64,000 nt of DNA from an uncultured Bacilli bacterium (GCA_944363535.1 CALVUG010000003.1:307-64306); one strand, 5' to 3'; shown: positions 24,281 to 64,000, counted from the stretch's first letter. Notes: a model not told the origin generated them from the letters alone. Translations and numbers: made by a program.

Positions 24281-24871
24281 TTATACGACGAGATATTGTT
24301 CTTTTTTTAATTTAATTTCATGAAAAGTTAAATCTAATTTACTTACATCTTTTAAACTAAGAAATGAAATTTTAGCATATTCTTCTAGATGATGTTCTTC
24401 TTTAATTTCAACGTCCTTTTTAGCTTTTAATTTCGCTAAATTTTCATAACTTAACGTCGCTTCGTAGAGATAAGCTTTTTCTTGCTTACCAAACTTAGCC
24501 TCATCGATAAGTAACTTCACCGTATTTAAATACGTTCTTAAAAGTCTAGAAGCACCAAGTAAGGTCCCACCAAAATAACGTACGACGATGATGAGATAAC
24601 AATTTAGATGTAACTTCTCACACATCTCTAAAACTGGCTTAGAAAAAGTATTATGCGGCTCTCCGTCCCCACTTGCGTAACTTACATCAAATATCTTATA
24701 AGCGTAACAATAATGCCGTGCTTTTGGATATTTAATTTTTATTTCTTCTAATATCTTAGTGACATCATCTTTCGTTTCAATCGGCCACAAAACACCAATG
24801 AAACGCGATTTGAGCACTTCTAAAGTCACTTCAAAGGAGTCTTTGGGGACGATGTAATTTAAATAGCTCAT
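24281..24871 (-). CDS. yigZ: IMPACT/YigZ family protein (UPF0029)
   Basis: 196 aa. Motifs SRFIG, ARHYCYAYKI and SGDGEPHNT fit the YigZ N-terminal domain. The start overlaps the stop of the 2103-aa gene (ATGA-type, 4 nt). Confidence 0.8.
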   Translation of the reverse strand: MSYLNYIVPKDSFEVTLEVLKSRFIGVLWPIETKDDVTKILEEIKIKYPKARHYCYAYKIFDVSYASGDGEPHNTFSKPVLEMCEKLHLNCYLIIVVRYFGGTLLGASRLLRTYLNTVKLLIDEAKFGKQEKAYLYEATLSYENLAKLKAKKDVEIKEEHHLEEYAKISFLSLKDVSKLDLTFHEIKLKKEQYLVV

Positions 24872-27800
24872 AAAGTGCGCAAAGTAGAGGCTAAATTAAC
24901 GTAGAAGTTCTCTACACCAAATGGATTAATATAATCAGTGAAAACATCTAAATCAGGATAAGTATTATTTAACGGAGTGATAAAATAAGCCAGATAAAAA
25001 TAATCTGAATAAACGCTATGACCCATATCTTCTAATGCAGCGATAAATGCTTCTCGATTTGTGATCATGTCATTTACATCAATATAATCAAACATATCAA
25101 ATAGCGAACGAATCTCTTGACACGTTTCAGGTGTCACAAGTAAAAGATAATCATCGAACGTTAAATCTTTATAATCTTCGTAAGAACTAGATTCGTAATT
25201 GGTTACTTTTCTAATATCTGTATCGATGATGTCTTCAAAATAAGAGAAGAAATGTCGTATACTAAGATCTAAAGAAACGTAAGCTCTATTGCCGTTACTG
25301 TCGAATGTCGCATTAAAGATGTTTTCTAAATTTAAACTATCAAATCCTAAGATATTTCCAGATAATTGAATAGCAGCTAATTCACCTAATTCCGAATAAG
25401 TATTTAAGAAGAATTTATTGATACCTTCGCCTTCGCTTCTTCCGCTGAAATTAGGCATCAAGGAATAAGAATAGAACTTACCAGCAAGAGAAGAGACATC
25501 GCTATCAAATAAAATAGAAGTTAATCCACTTTCATCGAACATACGAGCGAAGCCAAGAGACGCTGCATCGTAAATTAAATTCGTATCTTCATAAATATTA
25601 TCTAGGAGATAAGAATTGTAGAACGTCTCTAAAATAGTATCAAAATGACTAGATGTTTCAATTAATTCATCTACGGTAGAAATGCGTAAATCAGAGTATT
25701 TACTCGTATCTTCTACGTCCACTAAGACGTCGAATAAATTCTTTAAATTTTCTAATTCGTAATCGCGATATAAAGCTTGTGAGATACGGAAGTTAGCCAT
25801 ATTTTCTTGACTTAGAGGATTAACAAATAAATCTAATAAAGTATGGTTATTATTAGAGTTAACAGTAATTTCTTCTAATTGATTTTCAATCAATTGTGGG
25901 ATGACATTATTTAAAGTATCCACTTCATTTAAACTTCTTAAAATAGCGAACACTTTATCGTTAGGATTTTCTCCAAGTTCAGGTAATAAATTATCTAAGT
26001 TATTTAAACTATCAAAACTGATATTCGTAGAACCTAAATTTTCACCTACGACATCTAAGAAGGCTTTTAAATCATCTAATTCATATAACCAATTACCTTC
26101 ATTTAAACCAGTTTGACTAGTTTCAAAATTTCTTAAGCGATACGCGACATATTCGCTGGCGTTACTTGCGACATCGCTATCGTATCTTGCGTCATAATTA
26201 AGATGATCTAAACCGAGATTAGAATAGACATTAATCATCGTTTGGATGAAGACTGTATCGCTTCCTGAAGAGACACTTCCCGCTTGATGGAAGATAGAAC
26301 TTTCATAGATGGCTTTTAAGCCATTGATGATGTGATTATTATTCTTTATAGAATAAGTCGATAACTTCGTCAAATCTAAATCGGTGATAACCTTTAGTTC
26401 ATCTAACATCGTCTTCATGAATTCGAATTCACTTTCAGGATATTTGACATTGTAATTACTCGCTTCTTCGTAATGATAGAAGACGTTCGCGCTACTAAGG
26501 TCGATACTAAAACCATTTTCTACGTTATTGAATGGATTAACTGAGACGAATTGATGAATTAAATTAGGTGCACCATCATAGATGACATTAGAGTTATTTA
26601 ACGCTACGACTAAATCGTAAACTAACGCTGTATCGACACTTAAATAATCGATACTGTCGATCGACATCGATTCACCATCCGCAATATTGAGCGATTGTAA
26701 GATGCCTAAAACATCGAATATTTGAACGAGTTCTTTTTCTTGATAACTATAATCTACGACATCGCTCGCACCAAACTTAAAATGTTCATTTATAAGATAA
26801 TCAGCCTTGGCGATACCATCTACGTAAACACTAGAGTTATTCATATCTTTTGGTGAAGTTTCATCATAGATGATAATTTGCATATCTTCGAGTTCAAGAA
26901 TACTTGTCGTGAGAGCTTGGAAGAATGAATCTTCTTCACCACTCGTAGGATTTGGACCACTACGATGGAAGATGTGCGAAGCATTAAGATTTAACATCGT
27001 TTCTTCAAATAAATCTAAATCTAAACTGCTAAGGCTCGTATATTGACCTTCATTAATGTAATAAAGATTTTCGATGATAGCAACTAAGTTTTCAATTTCC
27101 CCTTCTAGATAGGGATTATCGCCATTATAATAAACATTCACACTATCAAAGGATACATCGTTTAAGAACGTTAAGCCGGTCGTTACAAGAGTAGCGTTAT
27201 TCATCGCATTTTCAATTTCAGCAGGCAAGATTCTAAAAAACAATTTGGAATCATTTAATGAATTTAAGAAATTAGTGAGAGGTAAAGAATCGATATTACC
27301 ATTTTGATCCAAAGTTGCCCAAAGTCTGTTTAAAGTATCGATAGAAATTTCTCCATTTTCATCGGCGATTGGTGCCGCATTAGAAATGACGTTCATCGTC
27401 AATCTTATCTCGCCTTGTTCCCCTAACCATCCATCGTGAATAACATTCGTGTCCGCATGTTTATTTCCAATACTTATGATATGTTGTTCAATAGTTTGAT
27501 TTGGACCCGCCATCTCGTCAGAGTAACCAATCTTCGTGATAAAATAAGAAATGATCGATTCAAAAGCCGTAAGATTTTCTTCTAACCTTACTTCGCTATC
27601 TTTAAATGTATTGAAGACTTCCGATTCATAAATTTCATTTAATAATTGTTCAAATGTTTCTTTATTTTCATCGATGTCAAAGATATTAAAATCTGGAACG
27701 CTTCCATCTAAGGAAATGCCCACTTCTTTAAAATCAGTTAAGACGTCGACGATTAAATCTAATTCTTGTTTACGACCTTGTTTATCTAAACTTAACAAAG

Positions 27801-30800
27801 CTTCACTATTCGCATTACTTAAATCGAAATCATCGACGGAAACGTGGTCGATAAGTTCATCAATCGCGTTATAAATTGGCACTCTTAAAATATCGACTTC
27901 ATTAAATGAATGAACAGCGTTTCGAAGTAAAGTTTCATCCATTTCATCGCTAAATAAATTGTCAAAAACATTGCCGCTTGGATTAGGTAAAGAATCGATA
28001 GCGAGGTTGATGTCCACTAACATCTTATAGATGCCATAATTTAAATCGTAACCCGTCTCTTGTTCACGACTTGTTAAATCTTTCCAAGCTTCTTTATAAT
28101 TCGCATCCGCGAAATCTTTTTCTATTTCGCTGTAACTAAGCCCATCTGGATCAGCAAAATAATCTCTATTCGTGCCGAGCGAATCCATCGATTGATGTAA
28201 TTTATCATAGATAAAATTAGAAAAAAGGAATTCTTGACTATTTTTATCTACGAACACACTTGAATCCACTAAGTTATCAAGTAATTCTAATACTAGGTCA
28301 GGTTCAACTTTAAAAATATCAATTTCGTTAATATTTTGTTCGAATTTACCAATTGTCGTACAAATTTTACCAAAGACTTTACCTTCTTCCGTCCAGTTGA
28401 CGATGTTAGAAAAAGAAATACCGCTACTAGGATCGATGATACCAGAATTAACAAGATAATAATCGAACGTATCAGCGATGCTAGATTTCGTCACTTCCGA
28501 TAAATCTATCGCAGCAAATATATCGGAGATACGATAAACTGTTTCAAGTTGACCGATCGTTTCATTGCTTAATGTTTCACCTTGTAAGGCATCATAGATG
28601 CCAGTTCCGCCGAAGATGCTAAAGAAGTTTACGATGTAGCCAATTTCACCATCGTAAACAATCTTACCATTACGGTCTAAGATGTAATCACCATTTAAGT
28701 GTTTACTATTTTCCCACTTCGTCACATCGAATCTAGAAGAATCGAAGTCGAACTGAGGAACACTATTTTCGTAGACTAATTCTAAAAGATTGTAGAAATT
28801 ATCCGTCCTCATATTACCGAAAGCATCTTTTGGATTAAGAATATTAGAGACGTAGAATGTTTCAAGTAAAGAGACGAGTTCTTCTTCATTTTCTGGAATG
28901 GAACGTAAGGCCATAGAAATGCTTACATCATCTTTTTCTATGAAGTTATTGGAGACGTAAACGACACCTTCGATACTAGAGAAGATAAGGGCTAATTCTT
29001 CACCGATATGTTCCACTTCCCAATCAAAATTTGCTGGGCTTAGACCAATTTGGCCTAAGGCATTAGTGACATCCGGCGAATCCATGAAGCCTTTGATGAT
29101 ATCAGGTACGATCGAACTTAAAATTTTAGAATGATCAATGGTCGGTAAAATATTCTCCATCCCATCGATAAAATTGCTATCGACGTCGACGATCATCCCT
29201 TCTTCATCGATGGTGATGACATCGCTATTAGTGGGATCCATGATGTAATCGACGATGGAATCATATTCGTTCATGAGTGATAAAGTATTTAATAACGCTC
29301 CAAATTCTTTTTTGAAGTTATAGAACGCTCTTTCATCGTTCATATCGAGGATGATAGATTCTAATTCAGTTGTATCGATACTAATAGTATCGTTTGAAGA
29401 TAAAGAGGTGACGAGTAAATCCACGAGGTCATCGATAGCGTACCTAATTAAATCTGAATCAAATAGGGCATAATCAGCGTTTTCTAACCTATTACCGTCT
29501 TTATCCGTCATTATGGTACGTCCCGCTTCATCGACCCCAATCGGATTACCGTCTTTATCTAACACTCCGACGAAGATGTAACTTAACGCTTTAGCGTTAA
29601 CGAACACTAAGTCGATAATTTGTTGGCCGGTCTCATCGATAGCGACGTCGTTTCTTACGTCGTCCACTAATTCATTAACGCTCACATCTTCTTGATTTTC
29701 ACTCGGTAAGAAGATATCGAGTAAATTTGGTTCAACTTGATTTAATTCGTAAAGCGAATCGTAGATGATAGCTAAGTTTCTTCCCCAATCGATATTTTTA
29801 TAATCTTCTAATTCGCTCGGTAAGTAAGTAGCGATATCTTCTCCTACCGTTCCACTCGACGTGACGCTATATAAGACGATAGGGATGAGACGAGATAATA
29901 ATTCACTATTCGAAATGGATTCAAAAATGCGCATGAAGTAAGGATAATTTTCTTCCGTGAGCATCGATTGATATAAAGTGTCGATATCAATTTCGCTCAC
30001 ATCTTTCCAACCAATCGCATTCCCTTCTCCATCATAATTGACGAAGTTACGTATTAAACCAGAACTAAAGACGTCGGAGACGATAATTTGTAGAGTATCA
30101 ATTTCTTCTTGCACATCGAAATTGAAATCTTCGATTAAAGAAGCGTCGATGTAATTTTCCATCGCATCTTGATTTAAACCAATCGCTAAAGCGATAGGAA
30201 GAGCGTAGACGATCAAATCTGAACCAGATAAAGTTTCTAATAATTGGATGAAGAAATCCGCATTATTAATCAAAGCTGGATCAAAAGAAAAACCATCTTC
30301 CGTCACTAAGCCATTGGAGATGATCGAACCTCCACCATGCCCAATTTGAGCGATGATATCATAAATGCTATCACCCGTCCCAGTATCAGTGAAAAAATCC
30401 ATGAGCCAAGTATCAAAAGTCCAAACGCCATCTTTTGAAGTCCAATTGAAAAAGACGTTAGAAAAAATAGAATTATTATAGGTAGAAACAAAGGAATTTA
30501 AATATTGCGCGACTTCTGAATCGCTTTCGCCCATGTTCGTTTGATCGTAAGCCCTTGAGAAAGTACCGATGATGCTAACGGTTGGAAGTGCACACATCAA
30601 AGTGATGACGACGTATCTAGCACTATGAATTAAACCACCCAGCCATTTCTTTCTTTTCGTCTTAATGACTCTTCTTGGGAAGAAACGTTTTAACACTAAG
30701 TTCCACAAGACGATAGTGAGGAAACCACCGACAGAAATGATGAGGATGGAAGAAATGATAATTGAAAGTAAGGCTAATAACGAAGTGGCGATACTTAAAG

Positions 30801-31179
30801 CATATTCGCTCGCGGCTTGCCCACTTGCGACGCCATAAAGTTCGAAGAATGTTTCGATATAATTCGCTAAAGTGCCAAATACCGAAGTAATTTCTACATT
30901 GATCGGTGCCCCAGTTGAAGGATTGGTAACAGTGAGGTCTTGGATACCAAACGCTCCAAGAATCGGCGCAGCATCAAAGCCCCCAATCCAACGTCCAAAG
31001 GCGGGCGCACAAAATAAAGCGATGATAGCTAAGCCACCCATGAAACAAAATCTAAATAAAGAATTTAATAGCCCTCTTTTCCAACCGATGAGAAAAGAAA
31101 TGAGAAGACCTACAAAAAATAAAACAAAAAGTGTAATTAAGGTAATATTGACGATAAGTCCAAGTGTTTCAGGTGTCAT
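24868..31179 (-). CDS. Giant (2103 aa) polytopic-anchored, acidic repeat protein; N-terminus tentatively CvpA-like
   Basis: One uninterrupted 6.3-kb ORF. About 5 TM helices in the first ~210 aa with a positive loop KRFFPRRVIKTKRKKW. The remaining ~1900 aa is D/E/N/S-rich and carries a recurring motif (see findings). Confidence 0.8.
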   Translation of the reverse strand: MTPETLGLIVNITLITLFVLFFVGLLISFLIGWKRGLLNSLFRFCFMGGLAIIALFCAPAFGRWIGGFDAAPILGAFGIQDLTVTNPSTGAPINVEITSVFGTLANYIETFFELYGVASGQAASEYALSIATSLLALLSIIISSILIISVGGFLTIVLWNLVLKRFFPRRVIKTKRKKWLGGLIHSARYVVITLMCALPTVSIIGTFSRAYDQTNMGESDSEVAQYLNSFVSTYNNSIFSNVFFNWTSKDGVWTFDTWLMDFFTDTGTGDSIYDIIAQIGHGGGSIISNGLVTEDGFSFDPALINNADFFIQLLETLSGSDLIVYALPIALAIGLNQDAMENYIDASLIEDFNFDVQEEIDTLQIIVSDVFSSGLIRNFVNYDGEGNAIGWKDVSEIDIDTLYQSMLTEENYPYFMRIFESISNSELLSRLIPIVLYSVTSSGTVGEDIATYLPSELEDYKNIDWGRNLAIIYDSLYELNQVEPNLLDIFLPSENQEDVSVNELVDDVRNDVAIDETGQQIIDLVFVNAKALSYIFVGVLDKDGNPIGVDEAGRTIMTDKDGNRLENADYALFDSDLIRYAIDDLVDLLVTSLSSNDTISIDTTELESIILDMNDERAFYNFKKEFGALLNTLSLMNEYDSIVDYIMDPTNSDVITIDEEGMIVDVDSNFIDGMENILPTIDHSKILSSIVPDIIKGFMDSPDVTNALGQIGLSPANFDWEVEHIGEELALIFSSIEGVVYVSNNFIEKDDVSISMALRSIPENEEELVSLLETFYVSNILNPKDAFGNMRTDNFYNLLELVYENSVPQFDFDSSRFDVTKWENSKHLNGDYILDRNGKIVYDGEIGYIVNFFSIFGGTGIYDALQGETLSNETIGQLETVYRISDIFAAIDLSEVTKSSIADTFDYYLVNSGIIDPSSGISFSNIVNWTEEGKVFGKICTTIGKFEQNINEIDIFKVEPDLVLELLDNLVDSSVFVDKNSQEFLFSNFIYDKLHQSMDSLGTNRDYFADPDGLSYSEIEKDFADANYKEAWKDLTSREQETGYDLNYGIYKMLVDINLAIDSLPNPSGNVFDNLFSDEMDETLLRNAVHSFNEVDILRVPIYNAIDELIDHVSVDDFDLSNANSEALLSLDKQGRKQELDLIVDVLTDFKEVGISLDGSVPDFNIFDIDENKETFEQLLNEIYESEVFNTFKDSEVRLEENLTAFESIISYFITKIGYSDEMAGPNQTIEQHIISIGNKHADTNVIHDGWLGEQGEIRLTMNVISNAAPIADENGEISIDTLNRLWATLDQNGNIDSLPLTNFLNSLNDSKLFFRILPAEIENAMNNATLVTTGLTFLNDVSFDSVNVYYNGDNPYLEGEIENLVAIIENLYYINEGQYTSLSSLDLDLFEETMLNLNASHIFHRSGPNPTSGEEDSFFQALTTSILELEDMQIIIYDETSPKDMNNSSVYVDGIAKADYLINEHFKFGASDVVDYSYQEKELVQIFDVLGILQSLNIADGESMSIDSIDYLSVDTALVYDLVVALNNSNVIYDGAPNLIHQFVSVNPFNNVENGFSIDLSSANVFYHYEEASNYNVKYPESEFEFMKTMLDELKVITDLDLTKLSTYSIKNNNHIINGLKAIYESSIFHQAGSVSSGSDTVFIQTMINVYSNLGLDHLNYDARYDSDVASNASEYVAYRLRNFETSQTGLNEGNWLYELDDLKAFLDVVGENLGSTNISFDSLNNLDNLLPELGENPNDKVFAILRSLNEVDTLNNVIPQLIENQLEEITVNSNNNHTLLDLFVNPLSQENMANFRISQALYRDYELENLKNLFDVLVDVEDTSKYSDLRISTVDELIETSSHFDTILETFYNSYLLDNIYEDTNLIYDAASLGFARMFDESGLTSILFDSDVSSLAGKFYSYSLMPNFSGRSEGEGINKFFLNTYSELGELAAIQLSGNILGFDSLNLENIFNATFDSNGNRAYVSLDLSIRHFFSYFEDIIDTDIRKVTNYESSSYEDYKDLTFDDYLLLVTPETCQEIRSLFDMFDYIDVNDMITNREAFIAALEDMGHSVYSDYFYLAYFITPLNNTYPDLDVFTDYINPFGVENFYVNLASTLRTL

Positions 31180-57886: not shown

Positions 57887-59356
57887 TTAGGCTGCTGCCG
57901 TAATCGTGATGATGTGAGAGTAGGTGTTTAAAGAGATGAGATATTGACCAGGAGTGTTAAAGACGATGTTCGTCGCACTGAGGTCATAAGCATCACTTGC
58001 TACCGCCACGTAAGCTGAAGCGAAGAAATCGACGTATGGGCTTGCAAGTTCAGCATTGTAATATTGAATACCTAATTGTTCGCCCGCTGCGCTAACAGTA
58101 ATCGGAGTTGCGAGTTCCATGACATCAGGATCGCTTGCGCTTTGCGTAAGCATCAAGCTTTCATCGATGCCCCAACTTCTTCCACCGAAGTTACCATCGA
58201 CATAATATGAGGCCACAGGTGCTACATATTCATCGTTCTTGGTCACTTCTAGCGTTTCCGCGGCTGCGTCATAAACGAAGTTATAATAGCCATCAGCGAG
58301 AACTTTCATATTAGATTCACCGCTGACAAGTTCTTTACTAGCGTCCGTTAAGTTAGAGCCACGAATGTAAGCATTACCTTCACTTACTTCACCAGTAGCA
58401 GTATCGGTGACTAAGGAAGCAAACATAAATTCATCGCTCGCTCTTAAATAAACGTTATTTAATGTATGGATGCCATCAGTTTCAACCATCAAGGTGTGAT
58501 CATTGTGTAAATCGGCCCAAGCGGTAATTTCTGCACCTTTTAGGTAGAAGGTCGTCGTCGTCTCTGGTCTAGTTTCGGTCGACTCACCAACTCTTTCCCA
58601 TTCTAAGGTATCGTAATAGTTACGGTTGTTATAAGTTTCTGGTGAATCATTTAGTTGGAAATCACCAGCGGGATAAGTCGTAAGGGTGAATTTATAACGA
58701 CCATCGACATTCGCCGTAATGTTAGAGGTGTAATTATCAGCCCCTAAACCACCACCGACGGAGAAATATTCCGTTCCATCACGAGTTGGTTCAACTAAGT
58801 AACCGCCACCTCTTTGGTGACCCCAAGAAACGGTACCAGTTTCTTCATCGATGACAGGATATGTGAATTGGAATTGATCGCCGATAAATAAGTTAATTTC
58901 GATGGTGAAGATGTTCGCACTATCATTATCTTCTTTAACCATGTAATGTTCATCGTTGAACACTTTACCCCAGTTCGAAATGCGAAGTAATTCGGTTTGT
59001 CCACTTCCCGCGAGCGCCCAGCGACGCGTATCTTCTTCATAAGAGACAAATGAACCAAAGATTGATAAGTCATCAGTGACTGGTGTCGTAAAATCGTAAG
59101 CATGCGTTAACGTTGGTTCACCATACCAGCCAAGGAACGTCTTATCAGTAACTGTTGTTGTCGGATCCCATTCAGGAGCGGTATTGCCATCTTCCACTTC
59201 TTCAGTGTGAAGGACAGTTTCACCGTCGAGATAAGAAACCGTATGTGTTTCATCAGGACCTGGACCAGGGGCAGGACCTGGATCGCATGAAGAAACCCCC
59301 ATGACGAGCGCCACTCCACATAAAAGTGGCAAAATTGTGAATAGCTTTCTTTTCAT
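57887..59356 (-). CDS. Surface lipoprotein: Listeria-Bacteroides repeat plus three tandem beta-sandwich (CBM/SusE-F-like) modules
   Basis: Start at ATG 59356 (SD GGAGGA). Lipobox GVSSC then a PGPAPGPGP linker. FLGWYGEP repeat. Three modules each ending in G-x-Y-x-Phi-x-Phi (DGRYKFTLT, DGYYNFVYD, PGQYLISLN). Confidence 0.7.
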   Translation of the reverse strand: MKRKLFTILPLLCGVALVMGVSSCDPGPAPGPGPDETHTVSYLDGETVLHTEEVEDGNTAPEWDPTTTVTDKTFLGWYGEPTLTHAYDFTTPVTDDLSIFGSFVSYEEDTRRWALAGSGQTELLRISNWGKVFNDEHYMVKEDNDSANIFTIEINLFIGDQFQFTYPVIDEETGTVSWGHQRGGGYLVEPTRDGTEYFSVGGGLGADNYTSNITANVDGRYKFTLTTYPAGDFQLNDSPETYNNRNYYDTLEWERVGESTETRPETTTTFYLKGAEITAWADLHNDHTLMVETDGIHTLNNVYLRASDEFMFASLVTDTATGEVSEGNAYIRGSNLTDASKELVSGESNMKVLADGYYNFVYDAAAETLEVTKNDEYVAPVASYYVDGNFGGRSWGIDESLMLTQSASDPDVMELATPITVSAAGEQLGIQYYNAELASPYVDFFASAYVAVASDAYDLSATNIVFNTPGQYLISLNTYSHIITITAAA

Positions 59357-59390
59357 TAGCATTCCTCCAAATGTGTGCCTAATCGTCACT

Positions 59391-59567: not shown

Positions 59568-59605
59568 GCAAAAGAAAAGGGCTAAGAATTTATTTTTCCT
59601 AGCCC
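59568..59605 (-). terminator. Intrinsic terminator after the 953-aa gene
   Basis: Reverse strand reads GGGCTA-loop-TAGCCC followed by TTTTCTTTT. Confidence 0.6.
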
Positions 59606-59632: not shown

Positions 59633-62494
59633 CTAAGCTTCCACTTCGTAAACCTTGGTGACTCCTAATTCATCGTTTTGATGTTCATTGATAAAATTAT
59701 TCATCTTCGATAAATCCACTACTTCACCTAAGTTCACTAAATTTAAGGAAGCATTTAAGGAAATAGGAACACCGACGTTAATGTTAAGTGTGACGTCGAT
59801 CCCTTTTAATTCTTTCTTTACTTCATCCGCATAAACTTTGATGAGAATGTTACTTAAGTCTTCATTCTTAGTTAGTTCATATAGATTGAAATCGAGGTAG
59901 AAATATTGACCAGTAGAATTATATTCTAAGTTGTTAATTAAATTTTCATAGTGGATGATTTGACCTTCCGTATTAGGCGACGAAGTTTCGATCATATTAA
60001 GATACATATCGCGTAAATCTAAGATGAACTCTAACATGTAATCTAAGATGTTATTGAAGAACGTATCTAAATCCACTACTTGGGTATAAGTGACATCATA
60101 TTTTGAACTAAATAAGCCCGTCTTTTGATCATAATCCGTCTTTTCTAAATAGATAAGACCATCTCTATAATAAATAGAAGCACTTCTTTCGATGTTAAAA
60201 ACACTCGATTGAATATAATCAGTATTATCGTTTACCGCAGCGATGACGGGAACATCAGGCAAATCAATCGCTAAAGAGACGTTTCCAGCCTCGTTTTTAA
60301 TTTTGATGTCGACTGGTAAATCGACATTCATAATGCTTAAAAGATTTAAATTGACATTACCTTCGAAATGATAATCGTTATGGACTGCGGTATTGATACC
60401 TAATTCTAAGAACAATCTCAAATCGTTAAAATCGAAGTAAGTATCAGAAATTTTTAGTCTACCTGCTTCTAAAGAAGCATCGTAAGCTTTTAAATCTAAA
60501 GAAATATTTAAAGTTTCACTTCCAAAAGTCACGTTAGAAATATCTAAACCATATAAATTAGATTCATCGTAACGAATAGAAATTAGCATATTTAAATCAT
60601 CGAAGCCTAATAACGCTCCAGAAAGATTGAAGGAAATTAACGTATCTGTAACATTTAAATTTGAAATGCTAGGCGTCGCTAAAAGTAAACCATAATCCCC
60701 ACCCATTAAGGCCGTGTATAAAGGCGTCGATTCAATCATCGTAATGATATCACCAAATAATTCCATGAAATGTTCATCGCGGTTAGAGATGACTTCTTTT
60801 ATCATGTTCATCACATCTTCGATAGCGTTCCCATCCATCTTCGCTCTTAAATTAGAGTTATAAGCCATGAGTAAATTATTGTCTTTACGGTAATCCGCTT
60901 GGATACGATGCGAATAATTAGAGCGATCCACTAGAGTCACTTCGCCAAAACCAAATTTTTCATAAACGTCAAATTGGAAGCCACCATCTAAAGTAAGTTC
61001 AGGTGTATTAATATCGCTAGATACCATTTCCCCTTCTAATTCAATTCTAAATTGATTTTGTTTCGTTAAATTAAATATTGTTGGAATAAGATTAAACGCT
61101 GGATCAATTGCGACGTATTTACTTACTTCAGGAGTTTTTAAATCGTAAGTAATTTGATTTAATTCTAAATCGAAATGGTAACCACCGTAACTGACGTCAT
61201 CTAAAGAAACCCCAATAAGTTCATTTGTAGATGATAAAGATAAAGTGAACGCTTCCATCTCTAAACCGAAGACTGATAAATCGAAAGTAATACTAGTTAC
61301 ATTTTCGCTTACATCAATTTTAGTAATCCAACTATTTAGATTTTCTAAATTAGAAAGAATGTTCATAATTTCATCCATCGCTAAGCCTTCGGAAACTTCC
61401 GTTAAGAAACTAGATAAAGTTTCATCTCCAATTTGTTGAAGAAGATAAGACACTAAGGAAGCGATAGATTCGCTTTGGACGCTAATGAAGTTAACGTCCC
61501 CTTGATTTAAATAGATCGCCTCATCTAAATAATAAAGTTCGAAGTTATGGCTTCTCGCGTTTTCATTTAAACTAAAATCTAAAGCATATTGATTAACGTT
61601 TAAATCGAAAGATAAATCACCAGCTAAGTTAATTAAAGGTAATAAATTTTCATCTTTCATCGTCACATTTAAATCAAACGTATTCGTTTTAGAATTAAAC
61701 GTATGATATAAGTTCTTAAATAAATTCGTCAGAGGTTCCATACTTTGATAAATTGGTGAACCTTCGATACTTTCAGGGCTAACGATTGCACTTGCGGAAC
61801 TAGTTCTAACAATGTCTACATCCAAGAAAGCGAACATATCTTGATAGAAGAACTTATTCGTTCTTAAACCCGTAAATTCGTAATTGAAATCAGATTTAAA
61901 AAATAAGGAAATATTTTCGTCGATTGCAAGTTCGAAGACGTAACCATCTGGATCCACTAATGGTTCCATGGCTTCAATTTTACCTAGTAAGCCTGCTAAG
62001 TCGAGGTTCACTAAGGAATCAGGTAAAGCAACGTTAATATTTAAAGATGATAACATGTCGATAAAACTTAAAATATTTGCGTTGCTCATCTTTAGATGAG
62101 AATCGTTATAATCTAAAAATAAAGTTTCATCGATGTAAGTCGCACTTGCGTTAACTTTAGAACCACCAAAATTGATATCTAAATCGCCTTTAATTTTTAA
62201 ATTGGTTAAATCGCTCGCATCCGCGCTTGCATCAATTAAGACTTTACCTTGGCTTAAAGAAGGTTGATAAGTAAAACTAAGTTCGCCATCGACGTCAAAC
62301 GTCTCAAGCGAAGTAAGTGAAGACATTAAAATTTCGCTTGGTTTCAAAGGCGGTTCAGGATCTGGTTCAATGGGGGTTGGCCCAACGCTTTGTGAACCAA
62401 TAGCCATACATAAATAATAACTTCCAAAACCTGATGCCGTTAGCAAAACTAAAAAAGTTGCCGTCTGCTTTAAAAATCCTTTCATCTTTTTCAT
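59633..62494 (-). CDS. N-terminally anchored 953-aa protein built from four ~200-aa units; function unknown
   Basis: N-terminal TM helix, Pro-rich linker PIEPDPEPPLKP, then a beta-rich N/D/L/S-rich body. ATGA overlap with the upstream 299-aa gene. Confidence 0.75.
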   Translation of the reverse strand: MKKMKGFLKQTATFLVLLTASGFGSYYLCMAIGSQSVGPTPIEPDPEPPLKPSEILMSSLTSLETFDVDGELSFTYQPSLSQGKVLIDASADASDLTNLKIKGDLDINFGGSKVNASATYIDETLFLDYNDSHLKMSNANILSFIDMLSSLNINVALPDSLVNLDLAGLLGKIEAMEPLVDPDGYVFELAIDENISLFFKSDFNYEFTGLRTNKFFYQDMFAFLDVDIVRTSSASAIVSPESIEGSPIYQSMEPLTNLFKNLYHTFNSKTNTFDLNVTMKDENLLPLINLAGDLSFDLNVNQYALDFSLNENARSHNFELYYLDEAIYLNQGDVNFISVQSESIASLVSYLLQQIGDETLSSFLTEVSEGLAMDEIMNILSNLENLNSWITKIDVSENVTSITFDLSVFGLEMEAFTLSLSSTNELIGVSLDDVSYGGYHFDLELNQITYDLKTPEVSKYVAIDPAFNLIPTIFNLTKQNQFRIELEGEMVSSDINTPELTLDGGFQFDVYEKFGFGEVTLVDRSNYSHRIQADYRKDNNLLMAYNSNLRAKMDGNAIEDVMNMIKEVISNRDEHFMELFGDIITMIESTPLYTALMGGDYGLLLATPSISNLNVTDTLISFNLSGALLGFDDLNMLISIRYDESNLYGLDISNVTFGSETLNISLDLKAYDASLEAGRLKISDTYFDFNDLRLFLELGINTAVHNDYHFEGNVNLNLLSIMNVDLPVDIKIKNEAGNVSLAIDLPDVPVIAAVNDNTDYIQSSVFNIERSASIYYRDGLIYLEKTDYDQKTGLFSSKYDVTYTQVVDLDTFFNNILDYMLEFILDLRDMYLNMIETSSPNTEGQIIHYENLINNLEYNSTGQYFYLDFNLYELTKNEDLSNILIKVYADEVKKELKGIDVTLNINVGVPISLNASLNLVNLGEVVDLSKMNNFINEHQNDELGVTKVYEVEA

Positions 62495-63390
62495 ACATTT
62501 TCTCCTTCATAATTAAAATTTGTATTTAAACTCGGAATGTCAATCTTGACATTTGGATAATAAAAATCTATTAGATGCGCATTAGAGGTGTGCGCTCCCA
62601 TCATGTAGACGGTATAAATTTCATCGATTTCTCGTTCTATCAAATTTAAATCTTCATCTAAAGTAATTTTCATCTCGACGCTAGTAAATTCTGGTTTTCT
62701 TGATAAATCGGACATCTTTTCCATTTGCTTGACGTAACGAAGTACGCTCGTCGTGGGATTTAAAGATAAGCTAATAACGTAGTTATTTTCTTCTTTACTT
62801 ACTTCACTATTTAAAACTGTCTTAGAAGAGATAATATAAATCGAACTTCTTTTTAAAGTTTTACCCCACTCTTCTTCGTAATCTTCTAAATTAGAAATAG
62901 TTTTATCTTCTTCATTCCAAGAAGCCATGACACCATCTTTAATATCTTTACCGTTATAAGTCGTCACACTTCCCGCTTCTTGATAAAATCTTTTGGCGAC
63001 GCTTACAATACCGGATTGAGAAATGGATTCATTAAAATATAAATCGTTATTTTTAATAGATACACTTCTTAAAGTTTGGTTGACGATAGAAGCCGCAATG
63101 TTTCCATCGGTCACACTATAAGAATTTTCTTCTAATTCGAATTTATGGTAAGCAATATTTACTAATTCGTAAGGTTCAAAACTAGAATAATCACCATTAG
63201 AGTTCGAATATTCTTTATATAATGCATCGATATCATCTTCATAATTTAAAGGATCATAAGCATCGTAATTGGTTTTAGGTCCTAAAAATTCTTGACCAAA
63301 AAACACTCCCACTCCGACACCAAGCGAGATGGCGAATACTGAGACGATGGAAGTAATGATGATTTTTTTCTTGCTAGGTTTATTTTTCAT
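62491..63390 (-). CDS. N-terminally anchored 299-aa protein, operon partner of the 953-aa gene
   Basis: MKNKPSKKK followed by a TM helix, then a soluble domain. No family that I recognise. Confidence 0.7.
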   Translation of the reverse strand: MKNKPSKKKIIITSIVSVFAISLGVGVGVFFGQEFLGPKTNYDAYDPLNYEDDIDALYKEYSNSNGDYSSFEPYELVNIAYHKFELEENSYSVTDGNIAASIVNQTLRSVSIKNNDLYFNESISQSGIVSVAKRFYQEAGSVTTYNGKDIKDGVMASWNEEDKTISNLEDYEEEWGKTLKRSSIYIISSKTVLNSEVSKEENNYVISLSLNPTTSVLRYVKQMEKMSDLSRKPEFTSVEMKITLDEDLNLIEREIDEIYTVYMMGAHTSNAHLIDFYYPNVKIDIPSLNTNFNYEGENV

Positions 63391-63518
63391 AGCAAGCGTA
63401 ATTAAAAACTTTTTTCTCGCTTTTGTCGCCCTCTTAATAAGAACCTAGAAAATAGAGTGATATCTATAATTAATAGAATAGTGAAAATCTACTCTCTGAT
63501 TTGGAGAGTTAGATAAAA

Positions 63519-63536
63519 AAACTTTTTTAAAAGTTT
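63519..63536. promoter_or_regulatory. Inverted repeat AAACTTTT-tt-AAAAGTTT over the -35 region of the XRE gene
   Basis: 8-bp arms ending 8 nt upstream of the -10 box. Candidate autoregulatory operator, but AT-rich and low-complexity. Confidence 0.35.
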
Positions 63537-63544
63537 AAAATAGT

Positions 63545-63550
63545 TATAAT
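63545..63550 (+). promoter_or_regulatory. -10 box TATAAT 7 nt upstream of ATG 63558 (leaderless-type)
   Basis: TATAAT-agacaac-ATG with no SD. Confidence 0.45.
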
Positions 63551-63557
63551 AGACAAC

Positions 63558-64000
63558 ATGGAAGAATTAAAAAGAATTGTTGGAAAAAACTTAACGAATT
63601 TAAGAAAAGAAAAAAAGATGACCCAATTAGAAGTCGCTGAATTATTTAATTATAGCGATAAAGCGGTATCTAAATGGGAAAATGGCGATACTTTGCCAGA
63701 TTTAGAAACACTTTATAAACTTGCGACATTTTATGGCGTCACTTTAGATTATTTAGTCAAAGAAGATAGAAGTAGGGAAAAAGATCGTTACCGCTTAAGA
63801 CCACAAAATAAAATATCGATCACTTGCCTTTTAGTAAGTCTCGTATGGATGCTCGCTACGATCATCTACGTCTGGGTTTTAATGGTAAATGATATCAACT
63901 ATTGGCAAACTTTCATTTGGGCAGTTCCAGTTTCTTGTATCGTCTTATTCGCTATTAATCACGTCTGGGGTCAAAGAGTTTATATCTTTTACATCTCCAC
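63558..64000 (+). CDS. XRE-family HTH regulator with C-terminal TM segments (3' end beyond the window)
   Basis: Not in the ORF track because no stop lies in the window. MEELKRIVGKNLTNLRKEKKMTQLEVAELFNYSDKAVSKWENG (Cro/C1 HTH), then hydrophobic helices ISITCLLVSLVWMLATIIYVWVL... Confidence 0.8.
   Translation, partial: MEELKRIVGKNLTNLRKEKKMTQLEVAELFNYSDKAVSKWENGDTLPDLETLYKLATFYGVTLDYLVKEDRSREKDRYRLRPQNKISITCLLVSLVWMLATIIYVWVLMVNDINYWQTFIWAVPVSCIVLFAINHVWGQRVYIFYIS

Follow-up and report, generated by a model that had tools for sequence, protein, structure and literature searches.

Two membrane-anchored proteins with predicted LolA/LprG-like barrels form a conserved module with a divergent membrane-bound regulator in uncultured Bacilli

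We analysed a 64,000-nucleotide (nt) stretch of DNA from an uncultured Bacilli bacterium (GCA_944363535.1, CALVUG010000003.1:307-64306; hereafter the window). Close to its end lies a two-gene operon encoding proteins of 299 and 953 amino acids (aa), next to a divergently oriented gene for a regulator with an XRE-family DNA-binding domain and transmembrane (TM) helices. The three genes, the first two as called from their open reading frames (ORFs), are:

62491..63390, minus strand: gene of the 299-aa protein, hereafter the partner (ORF call)
59633..62494, minus strand: gene of the 953-aa protein (ORF call)
63558..64000, plus strand: 5' part (147 of 201 codons) of the XRE-TM regulator gene, which runs off the window

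An initial annotation, made from the sequence of this DNA, had proposed a two-gene operon with overlapping reading frames. Both ORFs could indeed be read, and at their junction (GTATGAAAAAG) the TGA of the first gene and the ATG of the second share the letters ATGA. Each protein has a lysine-rich N-terminus and one hydrophobic segment, in agreement with the basic start and single TM helix that had been assigned to it. All motifs and coordinates described earlier were recovered exactly, save that the KGDL motif of the 953-aa protein starts at aa 102 and not at aa 101. The partner is an N-in/C-out single-pass membrane protein with its TM helix at aa 10-32 (63295..63363). The 953-aa protein ends in ...NDELGVTKVYEVEA, without an LPXTG motif or a hydrophobic tail; its N-terminal TM anchor (aa ~12-33, 62396..62461) is followed by four tandem units:

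61781..62353, minus strand: unit U1 (aa 48-238)
61139..61753, minus strand: unit U2 (aa 248-452)
60470..61123, minus strand: unit U3 (aa 458-675)
59636..60433, minus strand: unit U4 (aa 688-953)

Profiles of the four units, drawn from a 93-sequence alignment out of an exhaustive search, were compared with each other. U1 and U2 matched with 98.7% probability (E 2.7e-16, 173 columns), U1 and U3 with 96% (E 3e-9, 166 columns) and U2 and U3 with 99.9% (E 7e-32, 205 columns), and by this profile evidence the three units are certainly homologous. U4 aligned in register with U1 (77%, E 2e-5) and U2 (58%, E 1e-4), a borderline result that points to a divergent relative of the other units. In a smaller alignment of 12 sequences, the match between U2 and U3 alone was significant (97%, E 7e-11). 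Pairwise identity among the units is 17-34%, and the linkers between them are short and conserved (P240, Y249, Y460). Of the four-unit build that had been proposed, the relationship of U1, U2 and U3 is significant and the same order of elements recurs in the models of all four units, but by sequence U4 stays borderline. The partner had also been credited with one element weakly similar to the units. This did not hold up, as no significant sequence similarity between the partner and any unit was found in the profile comparison, and their likeness lies at the level of the fold only.

To describe this fold, AlphaFold2 models were built with the family alignments of both proteins and run with Foldseek against the Protein Data Bank (PDB). 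The partner model reached a predicted local distance difference test (pLDDT) of 89.9 and a predicted TM-score (pTM) of 0.82, while the model of the 953-aa protein was of moderate quality (pLDDT 69.7, pTM 0.43). Every unit of the latter was modelled in one order, with an N-terminal helix followed by 6 strands, a helical insert and a further 5-6 strands. The helical inserts are the parts with the lowest pLDDT, which would be compatible with a mobile lid. For the partner, the best Foldseek match was LprG of Mycobacterium tuberculosis (3mh8_A; probability 1.0, TMt 0.52, 221 columns), and SAOUHSC_02783 of Staphylococcus aureus (4eg9), EPD-BCP1, LolB and DUF1329 were among the others. LprG, LolB and EPD-BCP1 were matched with probabilities of 0.9-1.0 and TMt values of 0.37-0.52; the probability for MucB was low (0.28-0.33). 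The 953-aa model gave local matches of ~200-235 columns to LolA of four species, LprG and EPD-BCP1 (probability 1.0, TMt 0.33-0.52) as well as matches of ~300-345 columns to LolA3 and the two-domain RseB (RseB ~345 columns; probability 0.97-0.99). Ushers, TbpB and LptD were returned with low probability (LptD <=0.16), and TamB, YhdP and AsmA were absent among the 50 matches listed for this model, whose inter-unit geometry is unreliable (pTM 0.43).

That is, the predicted structures contain the unclosed ~11-strand antiparallel beta-barrel with helical insert that is a feature of the PLLLF superfamily. The units and the partner ectodomain (aa ~73-280, 62551..63174), which was modelled as a single barrel, are thus predicted to be LolA/LprG-type open beta-barrels. 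Since the TM-scores are modest (0.4-0.5), the likeness is one at superfamily level and does not indicate a close relationship. The units had initially been described as being of unknown fold, which no longer applies given the Foldseek matches of both models to LprG, LolA, LolB and RseB. A resemblance to LolA/LolB-like half-barrels had been offered as speculation only; it was returned by structure prediction and Foldseek for both proteins. A check for an adhesin or immunoglobulin (Ig)-like fold likewise gave LolA-like matches, with no Ig-like or beta-sandwich structure. Sequence searches gave a different picture. Neither protein matched any family profile in Pfam or NCBIfam, nor, at E up to 1, one of the LolA clan (LolA, LolB, LppX_LprAFG, MucB_RseB and related DUFs). 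Pfam was also run on 46 diverse relatives, with no meaningful match and none to the clan at E up to 0.05, and PDB sequences were matched neither by the single sequences nor by the family profiles of the two proteins.

The size of the family became apparent from an exhaustive profile search. A word-indexed search had found 16 clusters for the 953-aa protein and 50 for the partner, with no names beyond 'hypothetical protein', and its repetition from a diverse alignment gave 16 proteins, one of them new. The exhaustive search, in turn, revealed 497 representatives at 50% identity (212 with E <=1e-30), among which are proteins of 2000-4174 aa in which as many as 16 stretches matched. Tiling with hidden Markov models (HMMs) of the units showed the architecture TM-U1-(U2/U3)n-U4. 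U1 comes first, following the TM anchor or an N-terminal extension (P0193 and P0196), and U4 comes last in most of the tiled relatives, with no detectable U4 in a few giants. Unit totals range from 2 (584 aa, L032) over the 4 of the protein described here to ~16, with the membrane-proximal U1 and the distal U4 being kept and the internal U2/U3 being multiplied across the family. The units of the giants are mostly old, with a median identity of ~27%; recent duplications of blocks of 2-3 units do occur (P0168, units 6-8/9-11 at 95-100%; P0136, units 3-4/5-6 at 84-92%). Some giants contain extra modules, eight CBM5/12 modules in one and Listeria-Bacteroides repeats in another, which fits an extracellular location. 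This is a new, fairly large family, in which a known fold occurs in a new multi-domain, length-variable and membrane-anchored arrangement.

Such variation in length raises the question of a surface fibre, spacer or adhesin. The units would then be rigid building blocks of a stalk that projects U4 (and, in giants, carbohydrate-binding modules too), and the partner would be its base or an assembly factor. The number of units, 2 to ~16 between a fixed first and a fixed last one, would suit such a role, as would the recent block duplications, which resemble those of length-variable surface proteins. The eight CBM5/12 modules or Listeria-Bacteroides repeats borne by giants, the short, conserved linkers and the gene downstream of the operon in the window, which encodes a lipoprotein with a Listeria-Bacteroides repeat, point in the same direction. 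However, the units are old and differentiated, both here and in the giants, and not homogenised like typical adhesin repeats. The C-terminus lacks LPXTG or another wall-anchor signal, the fold is neither Ig-like nor a beta-sandwich, and adhesins are not typically tied so strictly to a single-barrel partner and a membrane-embedded sensor. The LPXTG motif, the Ig-like or beta-sandwich fold and the often near-identical repeats of MSCRAMM-type adhesins are all absent from the 953-aa protein. We consider a fibre rather unlikely.

For the conservation of the gene neighbourhood, one genome per species was scanned. We found 30 loci, all from uncultured gut, rumen or faecal metagenome-assembled genomes of Bacilli, Erysipelotrichaceae or 'Mollicutes', and clustered all ORFs of the 28 non-redundant ones. 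The partner was present in all 28, the large protein in 25 and the XRE-TM regulator in 25. A conserved fourth gene was sought in the same loci and none was found, with every other gene occurring in <=3 of them. Exceptions arise from a contig end, from a large gene that is unresolved and possibly fragmented, and from two versions of the large protein, a short one with two units and one of 1653 aa. The order of divergent regulator, partner and large protein persists down to 27-34% identity, in unrelated flanks. The co-occurrence of the three genes in related genomes, which had been put forward as a check, was therefore borne out, as the trio is the sole conserved gene set in these loci; the divergent, membrane-tethered XRE regulator of the earlier description, with its helix-turn-helix (HTH) domain and TM helices, is divergent in 25 of the 28.

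These data also bear on the possibility that a beta-rich protein merely mimics four units by chance and that the pairing of the genes is incidental. U4 is marginal against the other units and the partner resembles no unit by sequence, as would be expected in this case. But U1, U2 and U3 match with E-values of 3e-9 to 7e-32 over 166-205 columns, the unit HMMs tile relatives of 2-16 units without gaps, and the pair is adjacent in 25 of the 28 loci, two of the three others being the contig end and the unresolved, possibly fragmented gene. The profile comparison, the unit tiling and the conservation of the module refute a chance pattern, to which we give practically no credence.

Several loci deviate from the common arrangement or carry neighbours of their own. 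In L040 (3627..16183), the partner is followed on the plus strand by two large paralogues in tandem, of 1408 aa with 6 units and of 1316 aa with 4 units, the latter with a 300-aa N-terminal extension. There, the XRE-TM gene heads a minus-strand operon with genes for an LPG_synthase_TM protein (472 aa) and a GT4 glycosyltransferase (391 aa), and an integrase gene and a HipA-like gene come next after the module operon. The giants of L036 and L038 have neither partner nor regulator nearby. In L036 (8001..21597), the 4042-aa, 15-unit relative with the eight CBM5/12 modules has no partner or XRE gene upstream and is followed, 14 nt downstream, by the gene of a 484-aa Lipase_3 protein, plus that of a 172-aa unknown protein. 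Downstream of the 2979-aa, 10-unit relative in L037 (9408..13643) lie genes for an 877-aa protein, in which a TMEM164-family membrane domain is fused to an ABC ATPase, and for a 532-aa protein with a weak ABC_tran_2 match. A PlsC-type acyltransferase, a GT2 and HGSNAT-type membrane acyltransferases were found downstream of the large gene in single lineages. As each of these lipid-related neighbours occurs in single lineages only, we rejected them as a consistent feature of the module.

A mobile element or defence island was also considered. Integrase and type I restriction-modification (R-M) genes lie near the module in L001, as do the integrase and HipA genes in L040. The 299-aa and 953-aa proteins had no match in PADLOC or PHROGs, and the HTH of the regulator matched only generic repressor models there. 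Because the flanks otherwise consist of housekeeping genes and differ in every lineage, this reading was rejected.

Since the regulator gene runs off the window, the full 201-aa protein was read from L004, which is 100% identical over the visible 147 aa. It comprises an XRE-family HTH (aa 1-66; HTH_3, HTH_19 and HTH_31 matches), a linker and four TM helices (aa ~83-188), with no extracellular domain. Mean column conservation is 0.76 in the HTH, 0.38 in the linker and 0.55 in the TM helices, in which Trp and Pro positions are conserved. The intergenic region between regulator and partner contains the following candidate regulatory elements:

63491..63509: operator-like palindrome ACTCTCTGATTTGGAGAGT (family consensus aWTCTCT-N5-AGAGAGTt)
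63519..63536: second perfect palindrome (8+8), AAACTTTT-TT-AAAAGTTT, between the conserved operator and the -10 box of the XRE gene
63427..63458, minus strand: conserved box pair ACTCTATTTT (63458..63449) and AAGAGGGCG (63435..63427)

In the 64-kb window, the strict palindrome pattern matches once only. Of 25 intergenic regions, 14 contain it, which amounts to 1.4/kb versus 0.018/kb outside (~80-fold enriched). With <=2 mismatches it was found in 19 of the 25 loci (background 0.18/kb), in nearly all 19 of them 47-53 nt upstream of the XRE ATG. The palindrome is presumed to be the binding site of the XRE-TM regulator. The second palindrome is present in the closest relatives only (L001, L004 and L006) and not in distant loci. 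The box pair consists of CTCT/AGAG half-sites ~18 nt apart that abut the operon -35 box; judged by eye in the alignment, it recurs in most loci and is possibly a second operator.

In architecture, the regulator resembles BcrR of Enterococcus faecalis, a one-component regulator that directly senses a membrane-associated antibiotic (bacitracin) and activates the neighbouring operon (PMC3968067; PMC13384398). Both have ~200 aa, an N-terminal XRE HTH and four TM helices without an extracellular domain, both form a transcription unit of their own beside the target operon, and both have an inverted-repeat operator in the promoter region of the adjacent operon (the module's being the putative one found in 19 of 25 loci). 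The target differs, as neither a bcrABD-type transporter nor an undecaprenyl pyrophosphate (UPP) phosphatase is encoded in it. A tblastn search against plasmids returned many XRE+TM relatives of 27-34% identity, with the match reaching the TM region, in 1236 records. Such regulators were common in Enterococcus, Bacillus, Staphylococcus, Listeria and lactobacilli, one of them beside a lactococcin 972-family bacteriocin gene. From these matches, the plasmid-borne proteins look like a large, little-studied class of membrane-bound one-component regulators. We looked for BcrR among them; two that were inspected proved to be other XRE+TM regulators, and none was identified as BcrR.

A regulator without an ectodomain of its own might obtain one from its neighbours. 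The partner, the large protein or both could serve as its extracellular ligand-binding arm and signal through the packing of TM helices, in which case the operon would be mainly a signalling and not an effector system. The TM helix of the partner is as conserved as its ectodomain and contains a nearly invariant GxxxG (G24 93%, G28 97%), and the trio is strictly co-inherited. Moreover, the LolA-fold proteins RseB and MucB, both among our Foldseek matches, are lipid-sensing regulators of membrane-spanning anti-sigma factors, and there are described co-component systems in which a single-pass barrel protein is the companion of a TM transcription factor (PMC9214523). VtrA/VtrC and ToxR/ToxS, with a barrel that binds bile salts, and RseB/RseA would be the analogues. 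Yet the sensor candidates sit in the regulated operon and are not co-transcribed with the regulator, and an extracellular chain of 2 to 16 units is hard to explain for a sensor. In addition, some giants lack a nearby partner and XRE gene (L036 and L038), and no regulon past the module is evident, the window holding a single operator match. A co-sensing role seems unlikely to us.

The expression signals of the locus, apart from the putative operators, are:

63401..63429, minus strand: putative operon promoter with -35 GCGACA (63429..63424), a 17-nt spacer and -10 TTTAAT (63406..63401)
62502..62507, minus strand: strong Shine-Dalgarno (SD) sequence AAGGAG of the 953-aa gene, 7 nt ahead of its ATG and still within the partner gene (3' end)
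59579..59605, minus strand: intrinsic-terminator-like hairpin, a 10-bp stem with 5 G-C pairs, then TTTTCTTTT
63545..63550, plus strand: -10 box TATAAT of the regulator gene, 7 nt before its ATG, no SD

The position of the SD sequence within the partner gene, together with the ATGA overlap, indicates translational coupling. The hairpin starts 28 nt past the stop codon of the 953-aa gene and marks the end of the operon, so that the proposed terminator of its own was found as a hairpin and T-run at 59605..59579. The partner ATG lies 10 nt past the -10 box, with no SD in the window sequence; with a -10 box so near the ATG and no SD, the operon leader appears to be very short or absent. A comparable box near the partner ATG was found in 7 of 26 loci, with an SD instead in some lineages. 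For the regulator, 12 of 26 loci have a -10 box at a distance of 6-7 nt from the start codon and just 3 of 26 have anything like an SD, which suggests a leaderless mRNA. Both divergent genes thus seem to have very short leaders or none (63545..63560 and 63388..63429; loci L002-L040).

The remainder of the window consists of unremarkable chromosomal sequence from a low-GC Bacillota genome, with genes for GlmS, GlmM, an AddAB-type helicase-nuclease, a P-type ATPase, glycerol kinase, amylases plus a sugar ABC transporter and a LacI-family regulator; module paralogues were not found in its 64 kb. Directly past the operon terminator lies the 500-aa gene mentioned above (57887..59389, minus strand), whose product starts like a lipoprotein (...GVSSC) and also has a Pro/Gly/Thr-rich linker and one Listeria-Bacteroides repeat (Flg_new). 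It is part of a 2-kb stretch with a GC content of 0.40 (operon 0.33), is kept only in close relatives (L001 and L004) and lies outside the conserved module. A 2103-aa ORF (24868..31179, minus strand) with no Pfam match at E up to 1e-5 and several hydrophobic N-terminal helices encodes a large uncharacterised membrane or surface protein, unrelated to the 953-aa family. In the 92%-identical relative L001 (1..4455), three genes for type I restriction S-subunits (Methylase_S) are interleaved with a Phage_integrase gene ~5 kb past the XRE gene, a region that the window does not reach. By its gene content, this array looks like a shufflon-type phase-variable R-M specificity locus.

The initial annotation knew of no described system with this architecture, and we found none in Pfam, NCBIfam, PADLOC, PHROGs, PDB sequences or the literature. 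The module is most like a LolA/LolB- or LprG-type hand-over under a BcrR-type sensor, yet it is no member of those families. With the lipoprotein and glycolipid carriers LolA, LolB, LprG and LppX (PLLLF superfamily, SSF89392) it shares the predicted ~11-strand open barrel with helical insert, and a single barrel attached to the membrane, paired with another barrel protein, is reminiscent of the hand-over from LolA to LolB. In contrast to those carriers, which are soluble or lipoproteins, the proteins of the module are anchored by a TM helix, and there are four barrels per chain here and up to ~16 in relatives. Features of the Lol and LprG-Rv1410 systems were looked for: no LolCDE and no Rv1410-type major facilitator superfamily (MFS) transporter is conserved with the module in the 28 loci, and the N-termini are TM anchors that have no conserved lipobox cysteine. 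The absence of a profile match, of a lipobox and of a LolCDE or MFS partner, together with a multi-barrel, TM-anchored chain for which no counterpart was found, places the module outside the LolA, LolB and LprG families.

In their architecture, RseB/MucB with two barrels and SsdC with a TM anchor and a barrel come nearest. RseB and MucB are tandems of two LolA/LolB-like domains, compared with 4 here and up to 16 in relatives, and RseB works with a membrane-spanning regulator, as the module is paired with one. The family of RseB, MucB and SsdC, however, is recognisable by sequence, whereas that of the proteins described here is not. A conceptual analogue is given by the Lpt chain (LptC-LptA-LptD) and the TamB/YhdP/AsmA-like proteins, in which an N-terminal anchor is combined with a long, repetitive, beta-rich extracytoplasmic part that could be long enough to span the envelope, the likeness being that of a chain of hydrophobic grooves. 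These bridge-type transporters differ, as far as the predicted folds go, in having beta-jellyroll or beta-taco folds and in connecting two membranes; we know of no outer membrane in the host lineage, which by taxonomy belongs to the Bacilli/Erysipelotrichaceae.

GerS of Clostridioides difficile is a further case of a LolA fold in a monoderm Firmicute without sequence similarity to LolA. It differs in being a single-domain lipoprotein, which through strand-swapped dimerisation activates the amidase CwlD; the module has no amidase gene linked to it. SsdC of Bacillus subtilis, a ring-forming sporulation protein, combines a TM segment at its N-terminus with an RseB-like domain outside the cell (PMC7769602), the same layout as in the 299-aa partner. 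In monoderm Firmicutes, roles are known for no LolA-fold proteins other than GerS and SsdC (bioRxiv 10.1101/2025.01.13.632879; PMC7769602), and like them the module might act as a scaffold or allosteric activator of a cell-wall or envelope enzyme. A Peptidase_S8 gene comes next after the XRE gene in the closest relatives, which would be in line with such a role. But neither an enzyme gene nor a sporulation gene is conserved with the module across loci, and there is no sequence match to MucB_RseB or another family, and we regard a scaffold as very unlikely.

Taken as a whole, we tentatively read the module as an inducible envelope system that binds or relays a hydrophobic ligand under the control of a BcrR-like membrane sensor; this is the reading we favour, and it is possible, though we would not call it probable. 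The regulator would sense a membrane-resident signal through its TM bundle, bind the palindrome and control the operon. The ligand of the barrels would be hydrophobic or amphipathic, for instance a lipid, a glycolipid, the acyl chains of a lipoprotein or a host- or bile-derived amphiphile. The single-barrel partner would act as loader or acceptor at the membrane surface, like LolB or LprG, and the multi-barrel chain, its length matched to the thickness of the envelope, would carry or hand the ligand across the wall zone. The idea of a ligand is drawn from the known functions of the best structural matches (LolA, LolB, LprG and EPD-BCP1), from the precedent of a membrane-sensing regulator and from the scattered lipid-related neighbours (Lipase_3, LPG_synthase_TM/GT4, PlsC-type, GT2 and HGSNAT-type), which we count as weak evidence because they are inconsistent.

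Several points weigh against a ligand relay. The evidence from lipid-related neighbours is anecdotal, and the 28 loci share no transporter and no energy source alongside the module. Neither protein can be tied to a LolA-clan family at the sequence level, the TM-scores are 0.4-0.5, and the model of the 953-aa protein, with a pLDDT of 70 and a pTM of 0.43, is unreliable in its inter-unit geometry. The likeness of the regulator to BcrR is one of architecture, compared beyond the HTH by description and not by sequence. Finally, neither GerS nor SsdC, the two whose roles are known among the LolA-fold proteins of monoderm Firmicutes, carries lipids (bioRxiv 10.1101/2025.01.13.632879; PMC7769602). 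A more specific version of the relay, in which the anchored half-barrel chain, tunable in length from 2 to ~16 units, would form a conduit for lipids or amphiphiles through the wall, loaded by the partner and switched by the BcrR-like regulator, is distinctly unlikely in our view. Relay, fibre, co-sensor and scaffold are not fully exclusive of each other.

How lipids, glycolipids and lipoproteins move across the wall zone of single-membrane bacteria is, to our knowledge, poorly understood. The same can be said of the uptake and export of host amphiphiles (bile acids, fatty acids, sterols and the like) by gut species. Diderms and mycobacteria classically solve such problems with LolA-fold proteins, which in Firmicutes are known to us so far only from sporulation and germination. 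The widespread family of 497 representatives, missed by the profile libraries, has 2-16 predicted barrels of this kind on a membrane anchor and is paired with a single-barrel protein and a membrane-embedded one-component regulator, which makes it a concrete, testable candidate for the movement of lipids or amphiphiles. If true, the conduit would give Gram-positive bacteria an equivalent of the Lol, Lpt and bridge-like lipid transport of diderms, with a known fold rearranged. Should the module instead be a structural fibre or a sensor, it would still represent a new use of the fold and a new class of targets for BcrR-type regulators. With its defined operator-like site and small regulator, the system should be easy to test in Bacillus subtilis.

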